From UHGV virus genome UHGV-0093680: a stretch of DNA of 37,165 nucleotides. One strand, 5' to 3'. Under the pieces are notes generated by a model. The model worked only from the letters and a program-made list of their open reading frames with translations, did no database searches and was not told the DNA's origin. Positions 9,173 through 37,085 of this stretch are shown piece after piece (the stretch's first letter is position 1; every line of letters starts with the position of its first letter). Source of the DNA: a virus. The position numbers and the translations under genes were made by a program.

Positions 9173-9204
9173 GGGAATTACTGGATCAATCCACAGGAGT
9201 AATT

Positions 9205-9351
9205 ATGACAAAACAACTCAGTCCTTACCAGGACAAAATTCACAAACACATACTACGTGATCGCTTCCTGTCCAGCTTCAAGCAGCCTGGTCGATTCCGG
9301 GCTGAGTTGGAAAAAGTGAAGCTGATGCAGAAGGAGAAAGGTCATGAGTAA
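9205..9351 (+). CDS. Small ORF (48 aa) between cII and the O-like gene
   Basis: Not in the ORF track (under 60 aa); ATG 4 nt after AGGAG; overlaps the O start by 8 nt; a 48-codon ORF occupies this position in P22 as I recall. Confidence 0.4.
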
Positions 9352-29957: not shown

Positions 29958-31409
29958 ATGGCTACGTGGCAACAGGGTATTAATTCTGGTGGTTTTCTGG
30001 CTGGAATTGGTGCGCAAAATGAGAATGCGCCAAAGGCAAGCGACATTAACGCAACGCTTGGTCTGATTCGCGAAAACAATGAACTGGCTCGATCAGGTGC
30101 AAATAACGTTGGTCTGACCGCGTTACGTGGTCTGGCTGGAGTTGCTGATATTTATAAGCAGCAGCAACAGCAGGAGCGTAAAGCGGCATTCCAGAAAGGT
30201 TATGCGGATGCTTATGCGTCCGGCGACAGGGAGCAGATGCGTAATCTTATTACAGCATTCCCCGAAGAGTTTGAGGAAGTCCGTAAAGGCATGGGGTATG
30301 TCGATGACGCCCAGCGGAATGATTTTGGCAATCTGGCGCTCAAGGCTCAGGTAGCTTCGTCGCTTGGTCCGGGTGCATTTGGCAGGTTCATGATGGATAA
30401 CGAAAAGGAGATGCGTCGTTTAGGTATCCCTCCAGAAACTATTGCGGAAATGCAGGTTAATGACCCGCAGGGCTTCCAGCACTTCGCAGGTAATCTGGCA
30501 CTATTTTCTCTCGGTCATGAGAAGTATTTCGATATCAAAGATCAAATGGAAGGTCGGGATATTGAGCGTGGCAAGTTGGCAGAGACGATTCGCAGCAATA
30601 AAGCTGGGGAAGGTTTAAAGGCGCAAAGCATTGCTGTTAGCCGTGAAAACTCCCTGCGCACTGCTGGAGGTGCTGTTCCTGCATCTGTTAAAGAATATCA
30701 ATATTTCAACAGCCTGTCTCCAGAGCAACAAAAGACATATCTTCGTGTTCGAGGTCGTCCTGATGCTGGCGGGGAGAATGTTGTGCAACTGGCAGATGGC
30801 AGAACGGTAACGGTTGGTAGGAAGCTTCACGGCGCTGGTGCTAATGCGTTCTACGAAGGAATAGACAACGAGGGCAATATGATTCGCGTCCCCGCAAGTT
30901 CTATTGCTGCTCCGGCTACATCGGCAGCTAATGCACAGAATTACGAAATGAAGAAAGATCTTGATGCAATTTCTGGCGCATCAATTGACGATCTTGGCTT
31001 CATGACAGGTATTACAGGTTCTTCAGGTTCTTTTGCTCTTGGTGCAGATATTCGTAGCCGGGCATCTGGTGTTGAGGAGAGGAGGCTATACAACGCTGCA
31101 CAGCGAATCCAAGGAAAGATGCAGAATCAGGGCATTGCAGCAGCCAGAGATATGGGGGCATCTGGCATCAACACCGAAGCAGAGGCCAATAGGTATTTTC
31201 AGGGTATGCCAAAGCCTGATTTCTCAAGTCCTGAAGCGCTGCAACAATCAATGCGCGACATTCAGCAATATACCGACAATTACAACCAGCAATATAACGT
31301 TAATGTTGGTAATGGCGGGAAGAAATCATCAAGGCAACAGCCAGCTACTCAGCAATCAGTAGGAGGTAGCTACACGTCAAAATCAGGCATTCAATTTACG
31401 GTGGAATGA
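29958..31409 (+). CDS. Ejection protein (P22 gp20-like)
   Basis: 483 aa; size and position match P22 gp20 (about 471 aa). Confidence 0.6.
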
Positions 31410-33541
31410 TGAAAGTAACTGCAAACGGTAAGACATTTACCTTCCCTGATGGTACGAGCACGGAAGATATTGGCACCGCCATTGATGAGTATTTTGCTGG
31501 TCAGGCTGTTCAGCAACAAACAGTTAATCAGGCCAATAATGAACCAGCACGTGAAGAACCATCATTGATGCAACAAGCTGGCGATTGGCTCACAGGTGGT
31601 CAAAGTGCAGGACAAATTGCAGAGCAGGCTGGTCGTGGTCTGGTAAACATACCATTTGACGTATTGCAGGGTGGCGCAAGTCTGATTAATGCAATCAGCC
31701 AGGGGCTTGGTGGACCCAAGGTTTTGGATGATGTTTATCGTCCAGTAGACAGACCGACAGACCCCTACGCGCAAGCCGGTGAAACAATTGGTGGGTATCT
31801 CCTGCCAATTGGCACAGCGGCAAAAGCTGCTGGAGCGCCAGCAAAGCTCGCTGGAGATATCGGTTCCGCAGGAAACATGATTGCAGGTTCTCTTGCTGAT
31901 GCTGCAAATCAGGAGGGCGACTTTGCACAAAATGCTGCCATTAACGGTGGTATCAATATTGGTGCTCAGGGGATACTTTCTGGGGCTGGAAGGATCTTAA
32001 CCTCTAAATCACCTCAAGTTCTTGGTGGCGGGGCAATAAATTCCGCTGCTGATGTTTCGAAAATGGCAAAGTCTGGTACAGGAAGAGAGATTATTGCCAG
32101 ACAGTCAGCTAATGTGTCAGACGAAATAGCAAAAGCAGCAGATACTGCTGGAATAGATATCAACGCATTAACTCCTGGCATGAGATCAGGTAGTCGTGGT
32201 CTTGCTCAGGCGGAGGGGATTCTGGCGTCAAAGCCCGGAATTACACAGGATGCACACACCAAAGCATTCAGTGAAATAGAGTTGAAATTTAACTCAGCAT
32301 TGGATGAGTTTGGGGCTGAAGCAGGAACTGCATCAGAAAAAAGTGCAGCCATAAAACAAAGGGTTTTGGCAAGTATTGATAAAATGAAAAATTCAGAAAA
32401 GGCCGCATGGGATAGCGTCCGCTCCACGATGCCTGACGCAAAGGCCAGAATGTCAAACCTGAACGCTACAATTCAGGGTGATATTTTGGCTGGTATGCCG
32501 CTAACTCCTGAGATGAAACAATTTGCATCTGCTTATGCTAAAACTGGTAAAAAAGGAATCACGTTTGATGCCATGAAGGCATGGCGAAGTAAACTTGCTG
32601 ACGCAGAGCAGAAGTATATAAGGTCTGGTGAGGCAAATACGGCAAGGCGCATGGCGGAGCTTCGTGATGCAGCAACGGAAGATATGCGCATAATGGCTCA
32701 AAATGGCGGTTTTCTTGATGACTGGCAAAAAGCTAATGATCTGTCAAAAGCAAGATTTACAGCACAAGAACAGGCTGAAGCAGCGTTTGGTAGAGACCTT
32801 GCAACTGATCAGTTGGTAACTAATGGTTCTAAGGCGTTACAGGGTTCAGCAAAAAGTGGAACAGGTCAGTTCCATAAAATAATAAGCGCCCTACCTGAGC
32901 CGGAACGCGCGCCAGCAATTGCATCAATATTACAAGATGCAATGTCGCAAGGGGTACGCGGAGGTAAGTCTGAAGAGGCTGGAATTAAGCATATCGCGAC
33001 TATTCTTACCCCACAAAACGTGAAGGCAATTAGTCGATATTCTCCAGAACTTGGCAGGATTACAAGTTCATACGGAGAACTTGCACGAGCAGCAACAAAG
33101 CCACTTCGATATGTTGAACAGACAGGGCGATCTATGCCAGCCATTAGCACTCTTGAGAATGGCCTTCATCCAGTTTTAGAGAGCGCATTGTCTGGCGCTT
33201 TTAGAACTACTGGCACTATCGCAGGGTTATCTGGAGGAGGCGTTATTGGAGCAATAGCGGGTGGCGCTGCAGGTGGGGCAATTGATGCAATGGCAAAAGG
33301 AGCGATAGCGAAATTATCCGCAACTAGAAGCGGTCGTTACGCTATTGAAAAGGCTGTTCAAGAGGCAACAAAGGCAGTTAAGGTTGGGGCAAGTGATGGC
33401 GCATTAGCGGCGGCGGAACGCAGATTTATGGCAAATAAGGCCGCCGTAAAAGCAATACGCGAGGCACTAGGAAACGAAGAGTTCCAGCGTTTAGCAAGAG
33501 CTGGAATTGTGGCATCGCTAAGCGGAATGGCACAGGAGTAA
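31406..33541 (+). CDS. Ejection protein (P22 gp16-like)
   Basis: 711 aa, Ala/Gly-rich; last gene of the virion operon, as for P22 gp16 (which is shorter, about 609 aa). Confidence 0.55.
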
Positions 33542-33946
33542 TTAGTCATCCATGGATGGATTGAGCTTATCTCGTGTTGATGTGGCAATTTTCCCAACAT
33601 TTTTCAACCAAGATTTTAAGAAGGATATGTCGTCCTTAATATCATGAATATCCTCATTCTTTATACGATCAACCTTATCCTCTAAGCTCTCTATAGAACG
33701 CTCAATGCTAGACAGAGAGATTTTTAAGTCCCCTTGCTCACGTTCCAGTGAGGATTTGAGAGCACAATATTCGTTTTCTAGAATTCCTATTTTTTTTGTT
33801 AGAGAGTGCATTCGATACTCATACACCAAACCAGAAACGACTAATGCAGCCAACAGAAACCATTCAAGCACACCAACCTCCTTAGTTTTGCTCAGGATAC
33901 CAGATGATAATGTGTAGTTGGAGTAGCGCGGTTGTAATGCAAGCAT
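33542..33946 (-). CDS. Unknown single-pass membrane coiled-coil protein (134 aa) at the sieA-equivalent position
   Basis: Hydrophobic helix LEWFLLAALVVSGLVYEY followed by a heptad-rich region; AT-rich; stop codon back-to-back with the gp16-like stop; no SD at the first ATG. Confidence 0.5.
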   Translation of the reverse strand: MLALQPRYSNYTLSSGILSKTKEVGVLEWFLLAALVVSGLVYEYRMHSLTKKIGILENEYCALKSSLEREQGDLKISLSSIERSIESLEDKVDRIKNEDIHDIKDDISFLKSWLKNVGKIATSTRDKLNPSMDD

Positions 33947-34028
33947 TTTGTTTTGGTTTTATGCTTGCTTGTATGTGTGTACAGTGTATATAATGCAAGC
34001 ATACATCACAATAAAGGTGCTTGCATTA
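33934..34028. promoter_or_regulatory. Divergent promoter region with four ATGCAAGCAT / ATGCTTGCAT operator-like repeats
   Basis: Four copies in alternating orientation within about 95 bp, with a TATAAT hexamer at about 33989-33994 on the plus strand. Confidence 0.55.
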
Positions 34029-35020
34029 TGACTGAAAAGAAAAGTGGCGAAGGGAAAGCTAAGGGCGGTATCGCTCGCGCAAAGTCGCTGACTAAAGAGC
34101 AGCGTTCTGAAATAGCAAAGAAAGCAGCGGCTGCAAGATGGAAGGATAAACCATTAATTGCTACGCATAAGGGATCGTTCCAGCATGAATTCGGGATTGA
34201 TGTTGAGTGCTATGTGTTAAATGATGATAACAAAACTGCCGTTATTAGCCAGAGAGGCATGGGAGAAGCGATTGGTCTTGGCGAAGGTGGCAGCAGGTTG
34301 CCAAAGTTTATTCAGGGGAAAACTATTTCTCAGTATATCGGGCATGAATTAAGGGCAAAACTTGAAAATCCTCTTATTTTTCAATACAAACAGGCGGGCA
34401 CGAACACTCCAGCTAATCCTGTAATACATGGCTACGATGTAACAATATTAATTGATTTATGTCGAGCAATCTCTAATGCTAAAGCTGAAGGTAAGTTGCT
34501 TTCCAGTCAGGAAGGGATTGCTAAGCAAGCCAGAATCATTATTGATGCATCAGCCAAGGCGGGCATTCAGGGGCTTGTTTATGCTTTGGCAGGGTATGAC
34601 AGAACAAAAGAAGAGGTAATTCAAGCATATAAGCGATATGTTGCTGAAGAGGCTCGTGAGTATGAAAGAGAGTTCACCCCTGAACTTTATGAGCATTGGT
34701 ATCGTCTGTATGGTATAGACAAACCAGTTAGAGGGCGACCATGGGCGTTTAAATATCTTACGATAGATCACATTTATTACCCATTAGCCAGAAGTGAAGG
34801 AAAGGTATTTAATTTAGCAAAAACGTCAAAAGAAGAAAAAGGCAGCAAAAACGATAAAATACACCAGTTTTTATCAGAGGTTGGAGTTAAGGCTCTTAGA
34901 ACCCAAATAGGTAAGGTTACTGGTATTGCAATGGTTTCTGATACTCGAGAAGAGTATGAGAAATACATAGATGAAAAGGTTATTGGACAAAGAACCATAG
35001 ACTTAAAAGATAAAGAATAA
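34028..35020 (+). CDS. P63C-domain protein (330 aa)
   Basis: In-frame ATG within ORF 33953..35020; segment GSFQHEFGIDVECYVLNDDNKTAVISQRGMGEAIGL resembles the P63C domain as recalled; Lys-rich N-terminus. Confidence 0.55.
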   Translation: MTEKKSGEGKAKGGIARAKSLTKEQRSEIAKKAAAARWKDKPLIATHKGSFQHEFGIDVECYVLNDDNKTAVISQRGMGEAIGLGEGGSRLPKFIQGKTISQYIGHELRAKLENPLIFQYKQAGTNTPANPVIHGYDVTILIDLCRAISNAKAEGKLLSSQEGIAKQARIIIDASAKAGIQGLVYALAGYDRTKEEVIQAYKRYVAEEAREYEREFTPELYEHWYRLYGIDKPVRGRPWAFKYLTIDHIYYPLARSEGKVFNLAKTSKEEKGSKNDKIHQFLSEVGVKALRTQIGKVTGIAMVSDTREEYEKYIDEKVIGQRTIDLKDKE

Positions 35021-35026
35021 GAAAAT

Positions 35027-35050
35027 CCCACCGTCAGGTGGGTTTTTTAT
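35027..35050 (+). terminator. Rho-independent terminator after the P63C gene
   Basis: Hairpin CCCACC-GTCA-GGTGGG followed by TTTTTTAT. Confidence 0.8.
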
Positions 35051-35061
35051 AAGGAGTAATC

Positions 35062-35247
35062 ATGACCATAGAAGAACGTCTGAACAACATTGAGTTGAAT
35101 CAAACCCTGCTTGACCAGCGACTTTCAGATCTTGAGCTTAAAGATCTAGATGTGCAAATATCAGAAGCAGAAGCCAAGCTCTCCAGCTTAAACCACCGCA
35201 GGAAGCAAATCCGCGACAGAATTACTCGTGGACGCGGAGGCTGTTAA
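35062..35247 (+). CDS. Hypothetical small coiled-coil protein (61 aa)
   Basis: ATG 6 nt after AAGGAG; heptad-like sequence. Confidence 0.45.
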   Translation: MTIEERLNNIELNQTLLDQRLSDLELKDLDVQISEAEAKLSSLNHRRKQIRDRITRGRGGC

Positions 35248-35324
35248 GGTGTGATGGTAATCCTTGCTCACTAAATTTAAGGATGCGAATCTTTCCGGCC
35301 ATAGGAGTAATCATGATTTACCCA

Positions 35325-35861
35325 TCAAACAACCCACCAGTTTGCCTGATTGGATACCAGCCTTGCAGTTTTTATGGAATTAATTATGCCATGCTCAAGA
35401 GCCTTGTTAGCATCCAAAATGGTCGAGTCTGCTATCAGGGATGCCCACCTAATATGGGTTCCGATGTCGATATTGAACGTCTCAACGAAGCGATCAAGAT
35501 CGTTATCGAGGCATTTCCCGTACTCTCTCAATCTGGCATGGTCGGCGGCTGGGGAGGCAAAGCACCATAATAGAGGATGTAACAGGAATCTTGATAATGG
35601 GTTTGCGAAACGTTCTGAGCCAGCCAGGAAAACGATATTAGCTATGGATTCAACATTGCTTATGTTGTGAGTTCTAACGGTAACAGGGAGTGACTTAAGA
35701 AAGTTATACGCAGTAAAGCCAGCGGCAGTTTCCCCTCCCTGACTTGATATATGGATATTTAATTCAGTTGCGCCTTGAGATAATGCGGTGAGACAGTGGT
35801 TCTGAAGTTGCCCAACAGTGGCAGTGTTAACGGGGCATAAGAAATGAATTGTGTGCAGCAT
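35325..35861 (-). CDS. ClpP-like serine peptidase (178 aa)
   Basis: ClpP/S14-like topology: oxyanion-hole-like HISSQGGETAAG, candidate Ser in NVESIAN, His in LLHPLL, Asp in DNDLDRF; start overlaps the mnt-like stop. Confidence 0.55.
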   Translation of the reverse strand: MLHTIHFLCPVNTATVGQLQNHCLTALSQGATELNIHISSQGGETAAGFTAYNFLKSLPVTVRTHNISNVESIANIVFLAGSERFANPLSRFLLHPLLWCFASPAADHARLREYGKCLDNDLDRFVETFNIDIGTHIRWASLIADSTILDANKALEHGIINSIKTARLVSNQANWWVV

Positions 35862-36109
35862 TATTTTTCATCCTTACCATACATGGTCTTTAGCGTCTCA
35901 AGCAGCGCCTCTTTGAATTTGTCAGCTTCTTGCTGAGCAAATGACTCAACTGACTTTGGCGACCTATCTTCATCAATCGCGGCTTGCAAAATCATGACGA
36001 TCTCGGAGTTAACAGAGCGACCATTTTTTGATGCTCTGACAGCAAGAGCCTCGCGTAAAGATTCAGGGATTCTTACCGTAGTTGGAGAAATTGACACACC
36101 CTTTGCCAT
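35861..36109 (-). CDS. mnt: Mnt-like ribbon-helix-helix repressor
   Basis: In-frame ATG within ORF 35861..36151; RHH N-terminus …RIPESLREALAVRASKNGRSVNSEIVMILQAAI… resembles P22 Mnt as recalled. Confidence 0.65.
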   Translation of the reverse strand: MAKGVSISPTTVRIPESLREALAVRASKNGRSVNSEIVMILQAAIDEDRSPKSVESFAQQEADKFKEALLETLKTMYGKDEK

Positions 36110-36223
36110 ATCACACCTTTGGTATTCAATTTGATAGCAAAGTGTATGCAAAAAAATTTTGACTAGATATACTCACTTTGATATCTTTTGTATTCGAAAA
36201 GAGTTGTTTGTGTGGAGGGTAAC
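36110..36223. promoter_or_regulatory. Divergent Pmnt / Pant-like promoter-operator region
   Basis: Plus-strand TTGACT - 17 nt - TATCTT overlapping the inverted repeat AGATAT-N10-ATATCT, between the divergent mnt-like and arc-like genes. Confidence 0.45.
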
Positions 36224-36376
36224 ATGGAGAAAGAAATAAGTAAGATTTTGGTAAGGATGCCGCAGTCGTTAAAGGATGCTATAGGTAGCAGGGCAAAGGA
36301 AGAGTGCAGGTCGTTTAACTCAGAGGTTATCAAGCGCCTGATAGACAGCTTGAAGAGAGAGGGGGTAATGGTATGA
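36224..36376 (+). CDS. arc: Arc-like ribbon-helix-helix repressor
   Basis: In-frame ATG within ORF 36188..36376, 5 nt after GGAGGG; MEKEISKILVRMPQSLKDAIGSRAKEECRSFNSEVIKRLIDSLKREG resembles P22 Arc as recalled. Confidence 0.7.
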   Translation: MEKEISKILVRMPQSLKDAIGSRAKEECRSFNSEVIKRLIDSLKREGVMV

Positions 36377-36576
36377 GTAAAGAATGTTGTTTCTGCGGCA
36401 TTAGCGAATCAGACGCTGATCAAACATACATTTACTCTAAAGAAACAGGTCGGATGCTGTGTAGTGACTGCGTGTTGGACATCATAAGATACAAGCATCT
36501 TGGATGTTCTGCCAGCATTAGCAATATAGGTGAAGTATATGAAGGGAAAGATATAACTGATAGATCAGAAAGTTGA
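36373..36576 (+). CDS. Small Cys-rich (zinc-ribbon-like) protein (67 aa)
   Basis: CFCG…CSDC pattern; ATGA overlap with the arc-like stop. Confidence 0.45.
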
Positions 36577-36638: not shown

Positions 36639-37085
36639 ATGAATAGTATAGCAATTTTAGAAGCAGTGAACACCTCTTACGTACCATTCAACGGTCAGCA
36701 AATTATCACCGCCATGGCTGCCGGAGTTGCATATGTTGCGATGAAGCCAATCGTTGAAAACCTCGGAATGAGCTGGGGTACTCAGCAACAAAAACTTATG
36801 AAACAACTAGATAAGTTCAACTGTATTCATATGAATATGGTTGCTGCTGATGGAAAGCTTCGTAAGCTACTCTGCCTTCCTTTGAAGAAGTTAAATGGAT
36901 GGCTGTTCAGCATCAACCCCGAGAAAGTTCGTGCTGACATCCGCGATAAACTGATTCAGTACCAGGAAGAATGCTTTACTGTGCTGCATGACTACTGGAC
37001 AAAGGGAAAGGCAGAAAATGCACGTAAGAAAACATCTGTTGATGACAGGACTCCGCTTCGTGATGCTGTAAATATGCTGGTCTGA
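36639..37085 (+). CDS. Short antirepressor-like protein (N-terminal domain only)
   Basis: In-frame ATG within ORF 36573..37085 after GGAGA; about 148 aa; the assignment rests mainly on its position after arc, with only a weak recollection of P22 Ant N-terminal similarity. Confidence 0.5.

Follow-up and report, generated by a model that had tools for sequence, protein, structure and literature searches.

What does a ClpP-like peptidase gene do directly behind the mnt-type repressor gene of a P22-like prophage? The question is raised by the viral genome UHGV-0093680, a stretch of 37,165 nucleotides (nt) that was analysed as a whole and is referred to here as the window. A first reading made from the letters alone (hereafter the sequence-only reading) noted that a Mnt-like ribbon-helix-helix (RHH) gene overlaps the start of a gene for a protein of 178 amino acids (aa), to which it ascribed a ClpP-like topology and plausible positions for a Ser/His/Asp triad. 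The features at issue, in window coordinates, are the following.

35325..35861, minus strand: ClpP-like peptidase gene, 178 aa (Pfam PF00574, match to PDB 9UXT, AlphaFold2 model, alignment with ClpP, and the ratio of non-synonymous to synonymous substitution rates, dN/dS).

35861..36109, minus strand: mnt orthologue, first gene of the operon, encoding an RHH repressor of 82 aa (Pfam Arc, identity to P22 Mnt).

35859..35875, minus strand: translational-coupling joint between mnt and the ClpP-like gene (read from the sequence).

The account that we favour, with slightly more belief than doubt, is that the gene encodes a catalytically competent, N-terminally truncated peptidase of the type of Pseudomonas PpClpP1. 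It would travel as a single-gene moron, be expressed in the lysogen, and there retune the Clp proteolysis of the host.

An in-frame stop codon directly upstream makes a longer 5' version of the open reading frame (ORF) impossible. The 178-aa product is a ClpP-fold protein. It matches the Pfam family CLP_protease (PF00574; peptidase S14) at E 2.2e-11 with 44.4 bits, above the curated cut-off of 20.2, and the ClpP-type proteases of PHROG with a best E value of 7e-21. The NCBIfam ClpP equivalog models give 19-40 bits against cut-offs of 228-361. Among solved structures the best match is PDB 9UXT, which is PpClpP1 of Pseudomonas plecoglossicida (E 1.8e-35), and canonical ClpPs rank behind it at 1e-7 or worse. 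An AlphaFold2 monomer model computed from 23 homologues reaches a mean pLDDT (predicted local distance difference test) of 90.6. Foldseek aligns this model to 9UXT with a template modelling (TM) score of 0.90 and a root-mean-square deviation of 2.0 Å, and to E. coli ClpP with a TM score of about 0.72 and a probability of 1.00; Listeria ClpP1 and ClpP1/2 are also among the better matches (TM 0.78). The suspected ClpP-like topology is thereby confirmed, and the ranking of matches places the protein in the PpClpP1-type subfamily of short ClpPs. Comparison with the Pectobacterium copy (79% protein identity) gives a dN/dS of 0.08 at a dS of 1.6. Towards more distant copies, synonymous sites are saturated and pN, the non-synonymous divergence, is 0.19-0.34. 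These values indicate that the gene evolves under purifying selection.

Similarity to phage proteases invites a second reading, in which the gene is a misplaced or spare ClpP-type head-maturation protease. The top PHROG matches are families named 'head maturation protease', and the record of phage phiv205-1 uses the same name for its copy. A ClpP fold and detectable profile similarity are indeed common to this protein and the ClpP-related prohead proteases of phages (NF045542; PHROG 94/133). However, the NCBIfam head-maturation model NF045542 gives 49.3 bits, far under its cut-off of 120, and scaffold or capsid genes are neither fused to the gene nor adjacent to it. The window is a P22-like E. 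coli prophage, with Pfam matches to a terminase, the P22 portal, a scaffold, the P22 coat, gp4, gp10, gp7 and a gp20-type ejection protein. Its head module is of the P22 type, which needs no protease, and no prohead protease appears among the Pfam matches of the module; the ClpP-like gene lies outside it, on the opposite strand. Moreover, a Citrobacter prophage (L102) has its own S78 head protease alongside a ClpP-like gene, and the family includes a chromosomal Pseudomonas branch. On cut-off and position the head-protease reading was rejected, as the sequence-only reading had anticipated from the P22-like head module, and we give it next to no credence.

Whether the protein can act as a peptidase was judged from an alignment with E. 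coli ClpP (reference sequence identical to PDB 3MT6), which underlies all residue comparisons below. Ser72 corresponds to ClpP Ser97 and His95 to His122, and the motif SSQGG aligns with the NSPGG of the ClpP oxyanion hole (Gly42-Gly43). Ser72, His95 and Gly42-Gly43 are invariant among the 23 homologues, at identities down to 31%. The position of the canonical Asp171 is occupied by Ser146; both position 146 and its neighbour, Asp145 in this protein, vary among these homologues. The subfamily was defined by searching 1.84 billion cluster representatives (50% identity) with a profile, which gave 286 clusters at E<=1e-30, mostly of 180-200 aa; of these, 142 representatives of at least 170 aa were used for conservation counts. 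Ser, His and Gly43 are present in all of these (142/142), while the Asp171-equivalent position holds mainly G, A, R or P, and Asp is not among its six commonest residues. Because this position holds Ser146 and the subfamily disfavours Asp there, the active site is a Ser-His dyad. Two members of the proposed triad therefore align as predicted, and the third, Asp, does not.

Several other positions deserve mention. His65-Asn66 (Asn66 in 137/142 representatives), an acidic residue directly ahead of the catalytic Ser (D or E in 116/142, Glu71 in this protein) and Asp121 (107/142) are near-invariant in the subfamily and absent from canonical ClpP. Glu113 is kept in 130/142, at a position where E. 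coli ClpP also has Glu. One of these residues could stand in for the missing Asp or form a new binding site; by conservation, Glu71, Glu113 and Asp121 are the candidates for another acidic partner of His95.

The protein departs from canonical ClpP at its N terminus and on its docking surface. With its start at the first core strand, the ORF is missing the roughly 24 mature N-terminal residues, including the axial loops, of E. coli ClpP. Across the 142 representatives, a median of 8 residues precedes the first strand, compared with 40 in the E. coli ClpP precursor. Five of the seven residues that we take, from ClpP structures, to form the pocket for the IGF loops of ClpX and ClpA are polar here (Y60, Y62, F82, I90 and L114 become N35, H37, S57, H65 and N87). 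With neither axial loops nor a hydrophobic IGF-loop pocket, the protein is therefore predicted to be incapable of docking ClpX or ClpA by itself. It thus has the appearance of an active Ser-His peptidase with no means of engaging an unfoldase on its own.

The solved relative offers a precedent for such a combination. According to its published description (PMC12900304), PpClpP1 is the shortest characterised ClpP and has neither the N-terminal helix nor the axial loops. Its homotetradecamer has a pore of 42.7 Å. Its site is Ser73-His96-Pro, with an essential Ser and His and a dispensable third residue; its peptidase activity is low and it does not bind ClpX. Together with canonical ClpP it assembles into a more active heterotetradecamer, in which ClpX serves the canonical ring. 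The phage protein resembles it in length (178 against 183 aa), in its N-terminal truncation, in the placement of Ser and His (72/95 against 73/96) and in having a residue other than Asp at the third position. The two differ in sequence (about 38-42% identity), in the third residue itself (Ser146 against Pro) and in genomic setting. PpClpP1-type genes of the P. putida group are chromosomal and syntenic, whereas the phage gene is an accessory gene of Enterobacterales prophages that is co-transcribed with a repressor.

Mixed rings of an accessory and a canonical ClpP are known from other bacteria. In Pseudomonas aeruginosa, ClpP2 is an accessory ClpP that tunes ClpXP; ClpX can cap the ClpP1P2 heteropeptidase on just one of its sides, and degradation is retuned (PMC13056064). 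Like P. aeruginosa ClpP2, Listeria ClpP1 and mycobacterial ClpP1P2 involve a second ClpP whose active site or docking surface is weakened or atypical, and which works through hetero-tetradecamers and tunes the output of ClpXP (PMC13056064). Those accessory subunits are chromosomal paralogues of the host, whereas the extra subunit here would come from a prophage, and its mixing is a prediction. By analogy, the phage subunits would assemble into a heptamer-based barrel. This barrel might act as an open-pored peptidase of low activity or, more likely, would stack on a canonical ClpP ring of the host. Such mixed stacking would change the rate or the cleavage pattern of host ClpXP and ClpAP proteolysis in lysogens.

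When the protein would be made depends on the gene in front of it. The 82-aa RHH protein matches Pfam Arc (E 9.6e-11) and shares 36% identity with P22 Mnt over residues 11-79, with the C-terminal coiled coil included. PGAP labels the coding sequence 'Arc family DNA-binding protein', and the alignment with P22 Mnt identifies it as a Mnt orthologue. The TAA stop of mnt (35863-35861) and the ATG of the ClpP-like gene (35861-35859) share base 35861, with TAATG spanning 35863-35859, and an AAGGA Shine-Dalgarno (SD) sequence at 35875-35871 lies inside the final mnt codons. No space is left for a terminator or a promoter between the genes. In both phiv205-1 and survey locus L143, a terminator lies directly 3' of the ClpP-like gene. 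We regard the two genes as an operon because of the 1-nt stop/start overlap, the SD sequence and the terminator of phiv205-1. The Mnt alleles found ahead of the ClpP-like gene differ in their N-terminal, DNA-reading part and have in common the C-terminal ...TLKTMYGKDEK, which carries the SD sequence; the cassette with the ClpP-like gene thus recombines inside mnt.

Two features downstream bear on where the transcript ends.

35027..35042, no strand assigned: bidirectional intrinsic terminator, probable end of the mnt-ClpP-like transcript (terminator scan; phiv205-1 alignment).

35052..35316, plus strand: inserted 251-bp cassette with a gene for a 61-aa coiled-coil protein at 35062-35247 (repeat search, comparison with phiv205-1, phrog_7586 at E 1e-43).

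In the window, no local terminator follows the ClpP-like stop codon, and RNA folding of the next 91 nt gives a z-score of 0.1 against shuffles. In phiv205-1 the bidirectional hairpin CCCACCGTCAGGTGGG lies about 28 nt past the stop codon, and the same hairpin is found in the window at 35027-35042. Comparison of the two indicates that the hairpin is missing beside the stop codon because the 251-bp cassette sits ahead of the terminator. An exact 14-nt direct repeat, AGGAGTAATCATGA, which comprises a ribosome-binding site (RBS) and ATG, flanks the cassette at 35052-35065 and 35303-35316; none of 100 shuffles reached the repeat count. The cassette is missing from phiv205-1, where a single copy of the repeat remains, and its presence here looks like gain or loss via recombination at a common RBS-start sequence. 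A third copy of AGGAGTAATCATGA, with one mismatch, occurs at 9195-9208. A 95-aa ORF antisense within the ClpP-like gene (35283-35570, plus strand) has an internal ATG at 35313 preceded by the repeated RBS AGGAGTAATC. It was set aside as a probable by-product of the repeated RBS-ATG sequence.

The production of Mnt in lysogens is established P22 biology. In the proposed scheme, the transcript would run from the mnt promoter (Pmnt) through mnt and the ClpP-like gene to the terminator, and the ClpP-like protein would accompany Mnt whenever the latter is produced, which means in the lysogen. A conceptual precedent is RexB of phage lambda, which is co-transcribed with cI in lysogens and is a reported inhibitor of ClpP-dependent degradation.

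The distribution of the gene reaches well beyond this pairing. DNA with the ClpP-like gene plus mnt occurs in 178 of 5426 complete E. coli genomes (about 3%), always on the chromosome. A sister E. coli prophage lacks the ClpP-like gene, and its Mnt, of 90% protein identity, faces a YafO-type toxin gene instead. The PhiR12 lambdoid phages have the entire block of ClpP-like gene, mnt, arc and ant between tail genes L and K. Lone copies antisense to their surroundings occur at several kinds of site. In Klebsiella (57%), Leclercia (74%), Citrobacter (56%) and a second E. coli type (52%) the site is bounded by the lysis genes and terminase, in Proteus (54%) by N and erf, and in Chromobacterium (58%) by tail-fibre and lysis genes. 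Across a survey of 80 viral contigs, in which a Mnt-like ORF was sought within 1.5 kb, mnt stands directly upstream of every copy of at least 94% identity and of the 79% copy. All of the roughly 44 copies of 51-74% identity have no Mnt-like ORF within that distance, and their neighbours are mostly on the opposite strand. In a neighbour-joining tree with Pseudomonas chromosomal homologues as the outgroup, lone Leclercia-type copies fall within the group linked to the immunity I (immI) region in 199/200 bootstraps, and the immI-linked copies alone are monophyletic in 1/200. Presence or absence among relatives, varied sites in unrelated phages and a usual orientation antisense to flanking operons together identify the gene as a prophage moron.

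No conserved partner gene accompanies it, as the same-strand upstream ORFs beside lone copies are mutually unrelated. In the second E. coli type (L166, L167, L172 and L099; for example, L167:4374-4922), a conserved same-strand ORF of 182 aa, MFDFTHFEELTLASHQ..., precedes the ClpP-like gene by about 80 nt; it has no Pfam match and could be a co-cargo gene of that lineage only. The Pseudomonas branch, at about 40% identity and including PpClpP1-like genes, is chromosomal and shows the same upstream membrane-protein gene in 38 of 80 loci. A profile search of genome contigs found no RHH gene upstream of these chromosomal homologues, which are mostly from Pseudomonas. In the P. putida group (L013-L082; for example, L065:7595-7969), the membrane-protein gene, MKFDRFAQWLANW...TWQLVINTSTT, is on the same strand about 25 nt ahead. 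It may be an operon partner, and the accessible part of the PpClpP1 paper does not mention it.

These distributions also bear on a toxin-like module, one of the roles put forward by the sequence-only reading. As a type II toxin-antitoxin pair, the locus would combine an RHH antitoxin with a ClpP-like toxin. An upstream RHH gene with an overlapping stop and start is typical of such operons, and the RHH protein also matches the FitA-like antitoxin RHH family (E 2e-8). Nevertheless, mnt and the ClpP-like gene are each found without the other, with some 44 viral loci lacking the RHH gene, and the RHH protein, encoded divergently from arc-ant, is orthologous to Mnt over its full length. Furthermore, PpClpP1 was over-produced in E. 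coli with no toxicity reported (PMC12900304). With the two genes so readily separated, obligate co-occurrence fails; the toxin-antitoxin reading was rejected, and we consider it very improbable.

The neighbourhood in the window is that of P22 immI, as the sequence-only reading had recognised. The last ejection-protein gene (31406-33541) is followed by small cargo genes and then by the mnt and ClpP-like region. The mnt orthologue is divergent from arc-ant and lies between the ejection-protein genes and the tailspike, which is the P22-type immI layout, with ant truncated. The remaining features of this region are listed below.

36110..36223, no strand assigned: divergent control region between mnt and arc, whose place corresponds to the annotated Pant, Pmnt and operators of P22.

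36224..36376, plus strand: arc-like repressor gene, 50 aa (Pfam Arc, E 4.4e-12).

36639..37085, plus strand: ant antirepressor gene, N-terminal domain only, 148 aa (P22_AR_N, E 1.5e-45).

Within the control region, a sigma-70-like candidate for the ant promoter (Pant) was found at 36159-36187 on the plus strand, in a consensus promoter scan that gave no more matches than chance. The repeat tool reported no inverted repeats in the mnt-arc intergenic region (36110..36223); an AGATAT...ATATCT pair over the Pant candidate was seen by eye only. Between arc and ant, a 67-aa Cys-rich ORF (36373-36576; CCFCG...CSDC; phrog_7150, E 1e-49) overlaps the arc stop through ATGA; in P22 this interval holds the sar antisense RNA region alone. 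Homology to the ant gene of epsilon34 extends no further than about 37082, and the stretch 37070-37165 matches regions labelled 'mobile element protein' in Shiga toxin (Stx) phages. The final 95 nt or so of the window begin TGAACCGCCCCGGG and look like an IS3-family end. A mobile element that continues past the last base of the window cuts ant short at about 37083; the antirepressor was probably inactivated by an insertion sequence (IS).

The cargo upstream of the operon (33542-35020) comprises a membrane-anchored coiled-coil ORF at 33542-33946 on the minus strand (phrog_5962) and, at 34028-35020 on the plus strand, a 330-aa P63C-domain protein (phrog_2384). In the sister E. coli prophage (L095), a 188-aa protein and the YafO-family toxin take the place of this cargo, which marks a variable cargo slot.

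Comparison with P22 corrects one premise. The sequence-only reading took P22 mnt to be a solitary gene, but the P22 record places the mnt terminator after orf59a, and sieA, with its own promoter, comes next on the same strand. P22 mnt is co-transcribed with orf59a, which precedes the terminator, and a passenger gene behind mnt is therefore the normal arrangement. Both regions have mnt divergent from arc-ant, a same-strand passenger followed by a terminator, and adjoining ejection-protein genes. They differ in the passenger (orf59a/sieA against a ClpP-family peptidase), in Mnt, which is only 36% identical, and in the truncation of the window's ant by a mobile element. By position, the ClpP-like gene appears to fill the P22 passenger slot (orf59a/sieA) next to a repressor that maintains lysogeny.

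A regulatory role within immI was the most specific proposal of the sequence-only reading. As a dedicated switch, the peptidase would set lysogen stability or induction by degrading Ant, Arc, Mnt or the c2-type repressor. Co-transcription with mnt fits this idea, as do the movement of the ClpP-like-mnt-arc-ant block as a unit into the tail region of PhiR12 and the retention of the Mnt pairing in Pectobacterium (79%) and Providencia (66%). On the other side stand the viral-contig copies of 51-74% identity with neither Mnt nor Ant nearby and the tree described above, in which the immI-linked clade takes in the lone Leclercia-type copies (199/200) and an immI-only clade is almost never recovered (1/200). 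The 90%-identical Mnt allele of the sister prophage works without a ClpP-like gene; in the window the gene is intact although ant is disrupted; and the protein has neither a domain for substrate recognition nor a surface for docking an unfoldase. A dedicated Ant/Mnt switch is improbable because the gene is found without immI in most lineages, its context shifts within a single clade, and it remains intact beside a truncated ant.

A different role is that of a superinfection-exclusion or anti-phage effector, in which the prophage-expressed peptidase would degrade phage proteins or disturb Clp-dependent steps of a phage. This reading concerns biological role and is compatible with a mixed-ClpP mechanism. 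The ClpP-like gene occupies the P22 sieA slot, the slot is a variable cargo region (a YafO-type toxin in the sister prophage, the P63C protein and small genes here), and lone copies lie antisense at classic moron sites. Yet none of 5027 PADLOC models matched, no conserved partner gene and no experimental report were found, and the syntenic chromosomal Pseudomonas branch, with its shared upstream gene in 38/80 loci, argues for a general function in proteostasis. We consider an effector role rather unlikely, though better placed than a switch. For the favoured account of a truncated peptidase that retunes host Clp proteolysis, a role in defence or lysogenic conversion is possible. What the phage gains could be a defence against superinfection, lysogen stability or the safeguarding of labile regulators or antitoxins, or a fitter host.

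The account can be extended to the Enterobacterales temperate phages as a group. These phages may spread a dedicated 'plug-in' ClpP subunit that, in the lysogenic state, would join the single ClpP of the host in mixed barrels open to capping on one side only, and would thereby reprogramme ClpXP and ClpAP degradation for the benefit of the prophage. In P22-like phages, the dose would be tied to lysogeny through the mnt promoter. The benefit might lie in stabilised regulators or antitoxins, or in a block on superinfecting phages that need Clp turnover. We offer this extension tentatively, as a doubtful but possible generalisation.

Several observations weigh against the favoured account. The properties of PpClpP1 may not transfer at an identity of about 38-42%. 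Expression in the lysogen is something that we infer from operon position and orientation only: the consensus promoter scan of the mnt-arc region yielded no Pmnt, and scans upstream of lone copies performed no better than on shuffled controls. The mnt-ClpP-like pair is kept in P22-like prophages of Pectobacterium and Providencia, and a secondary, immI-specific role may exist in the Mnt-paired clade. In the PADLOC search, which covered the ClpP-like protein, Mnt and four neighbours, no defence family was found, and two neighbour matches were at chance level. Literature searches on prophage, immI or moron ClpP returned generic mentions only and no paper on this prophage gene.

The PpClpP1-type family was structurally described in 2026 from a chromosomal Pseudomonas member; neither the prophage clade nor its linkage to mnt appears to have been described in the searchable literature. 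Automatic database annotation names the gene either 'ATP-dependent Clp protease proteolytic subunit', the PGAP label on the E. coli copies, or 'head maturation protease'. E. coli is the textbook one-ClpP organism, and about 3% of its complete genomes carry a second ClpP, predicted to be docking-deficient, on a prophage. What stands out is a phage that supplies a second ClpP to a one-ClpP host; nothing yet points to an unusual mechanism. Because the gene is small and self-contained and natural prophage pairs with and without it exist, the question is easily testable. If the phage ClpP mixes with that of the host, lysogeny would alter a central proteolytic machine, with possible effects on stress responses, toxin-antitoxin stability, phage-phage interactions and ClpP-targeting antibiotics. 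A plug-in ClpP, if true, would represent a previously undescribed class of lysogenic conversion that acts on the protease core of the host.

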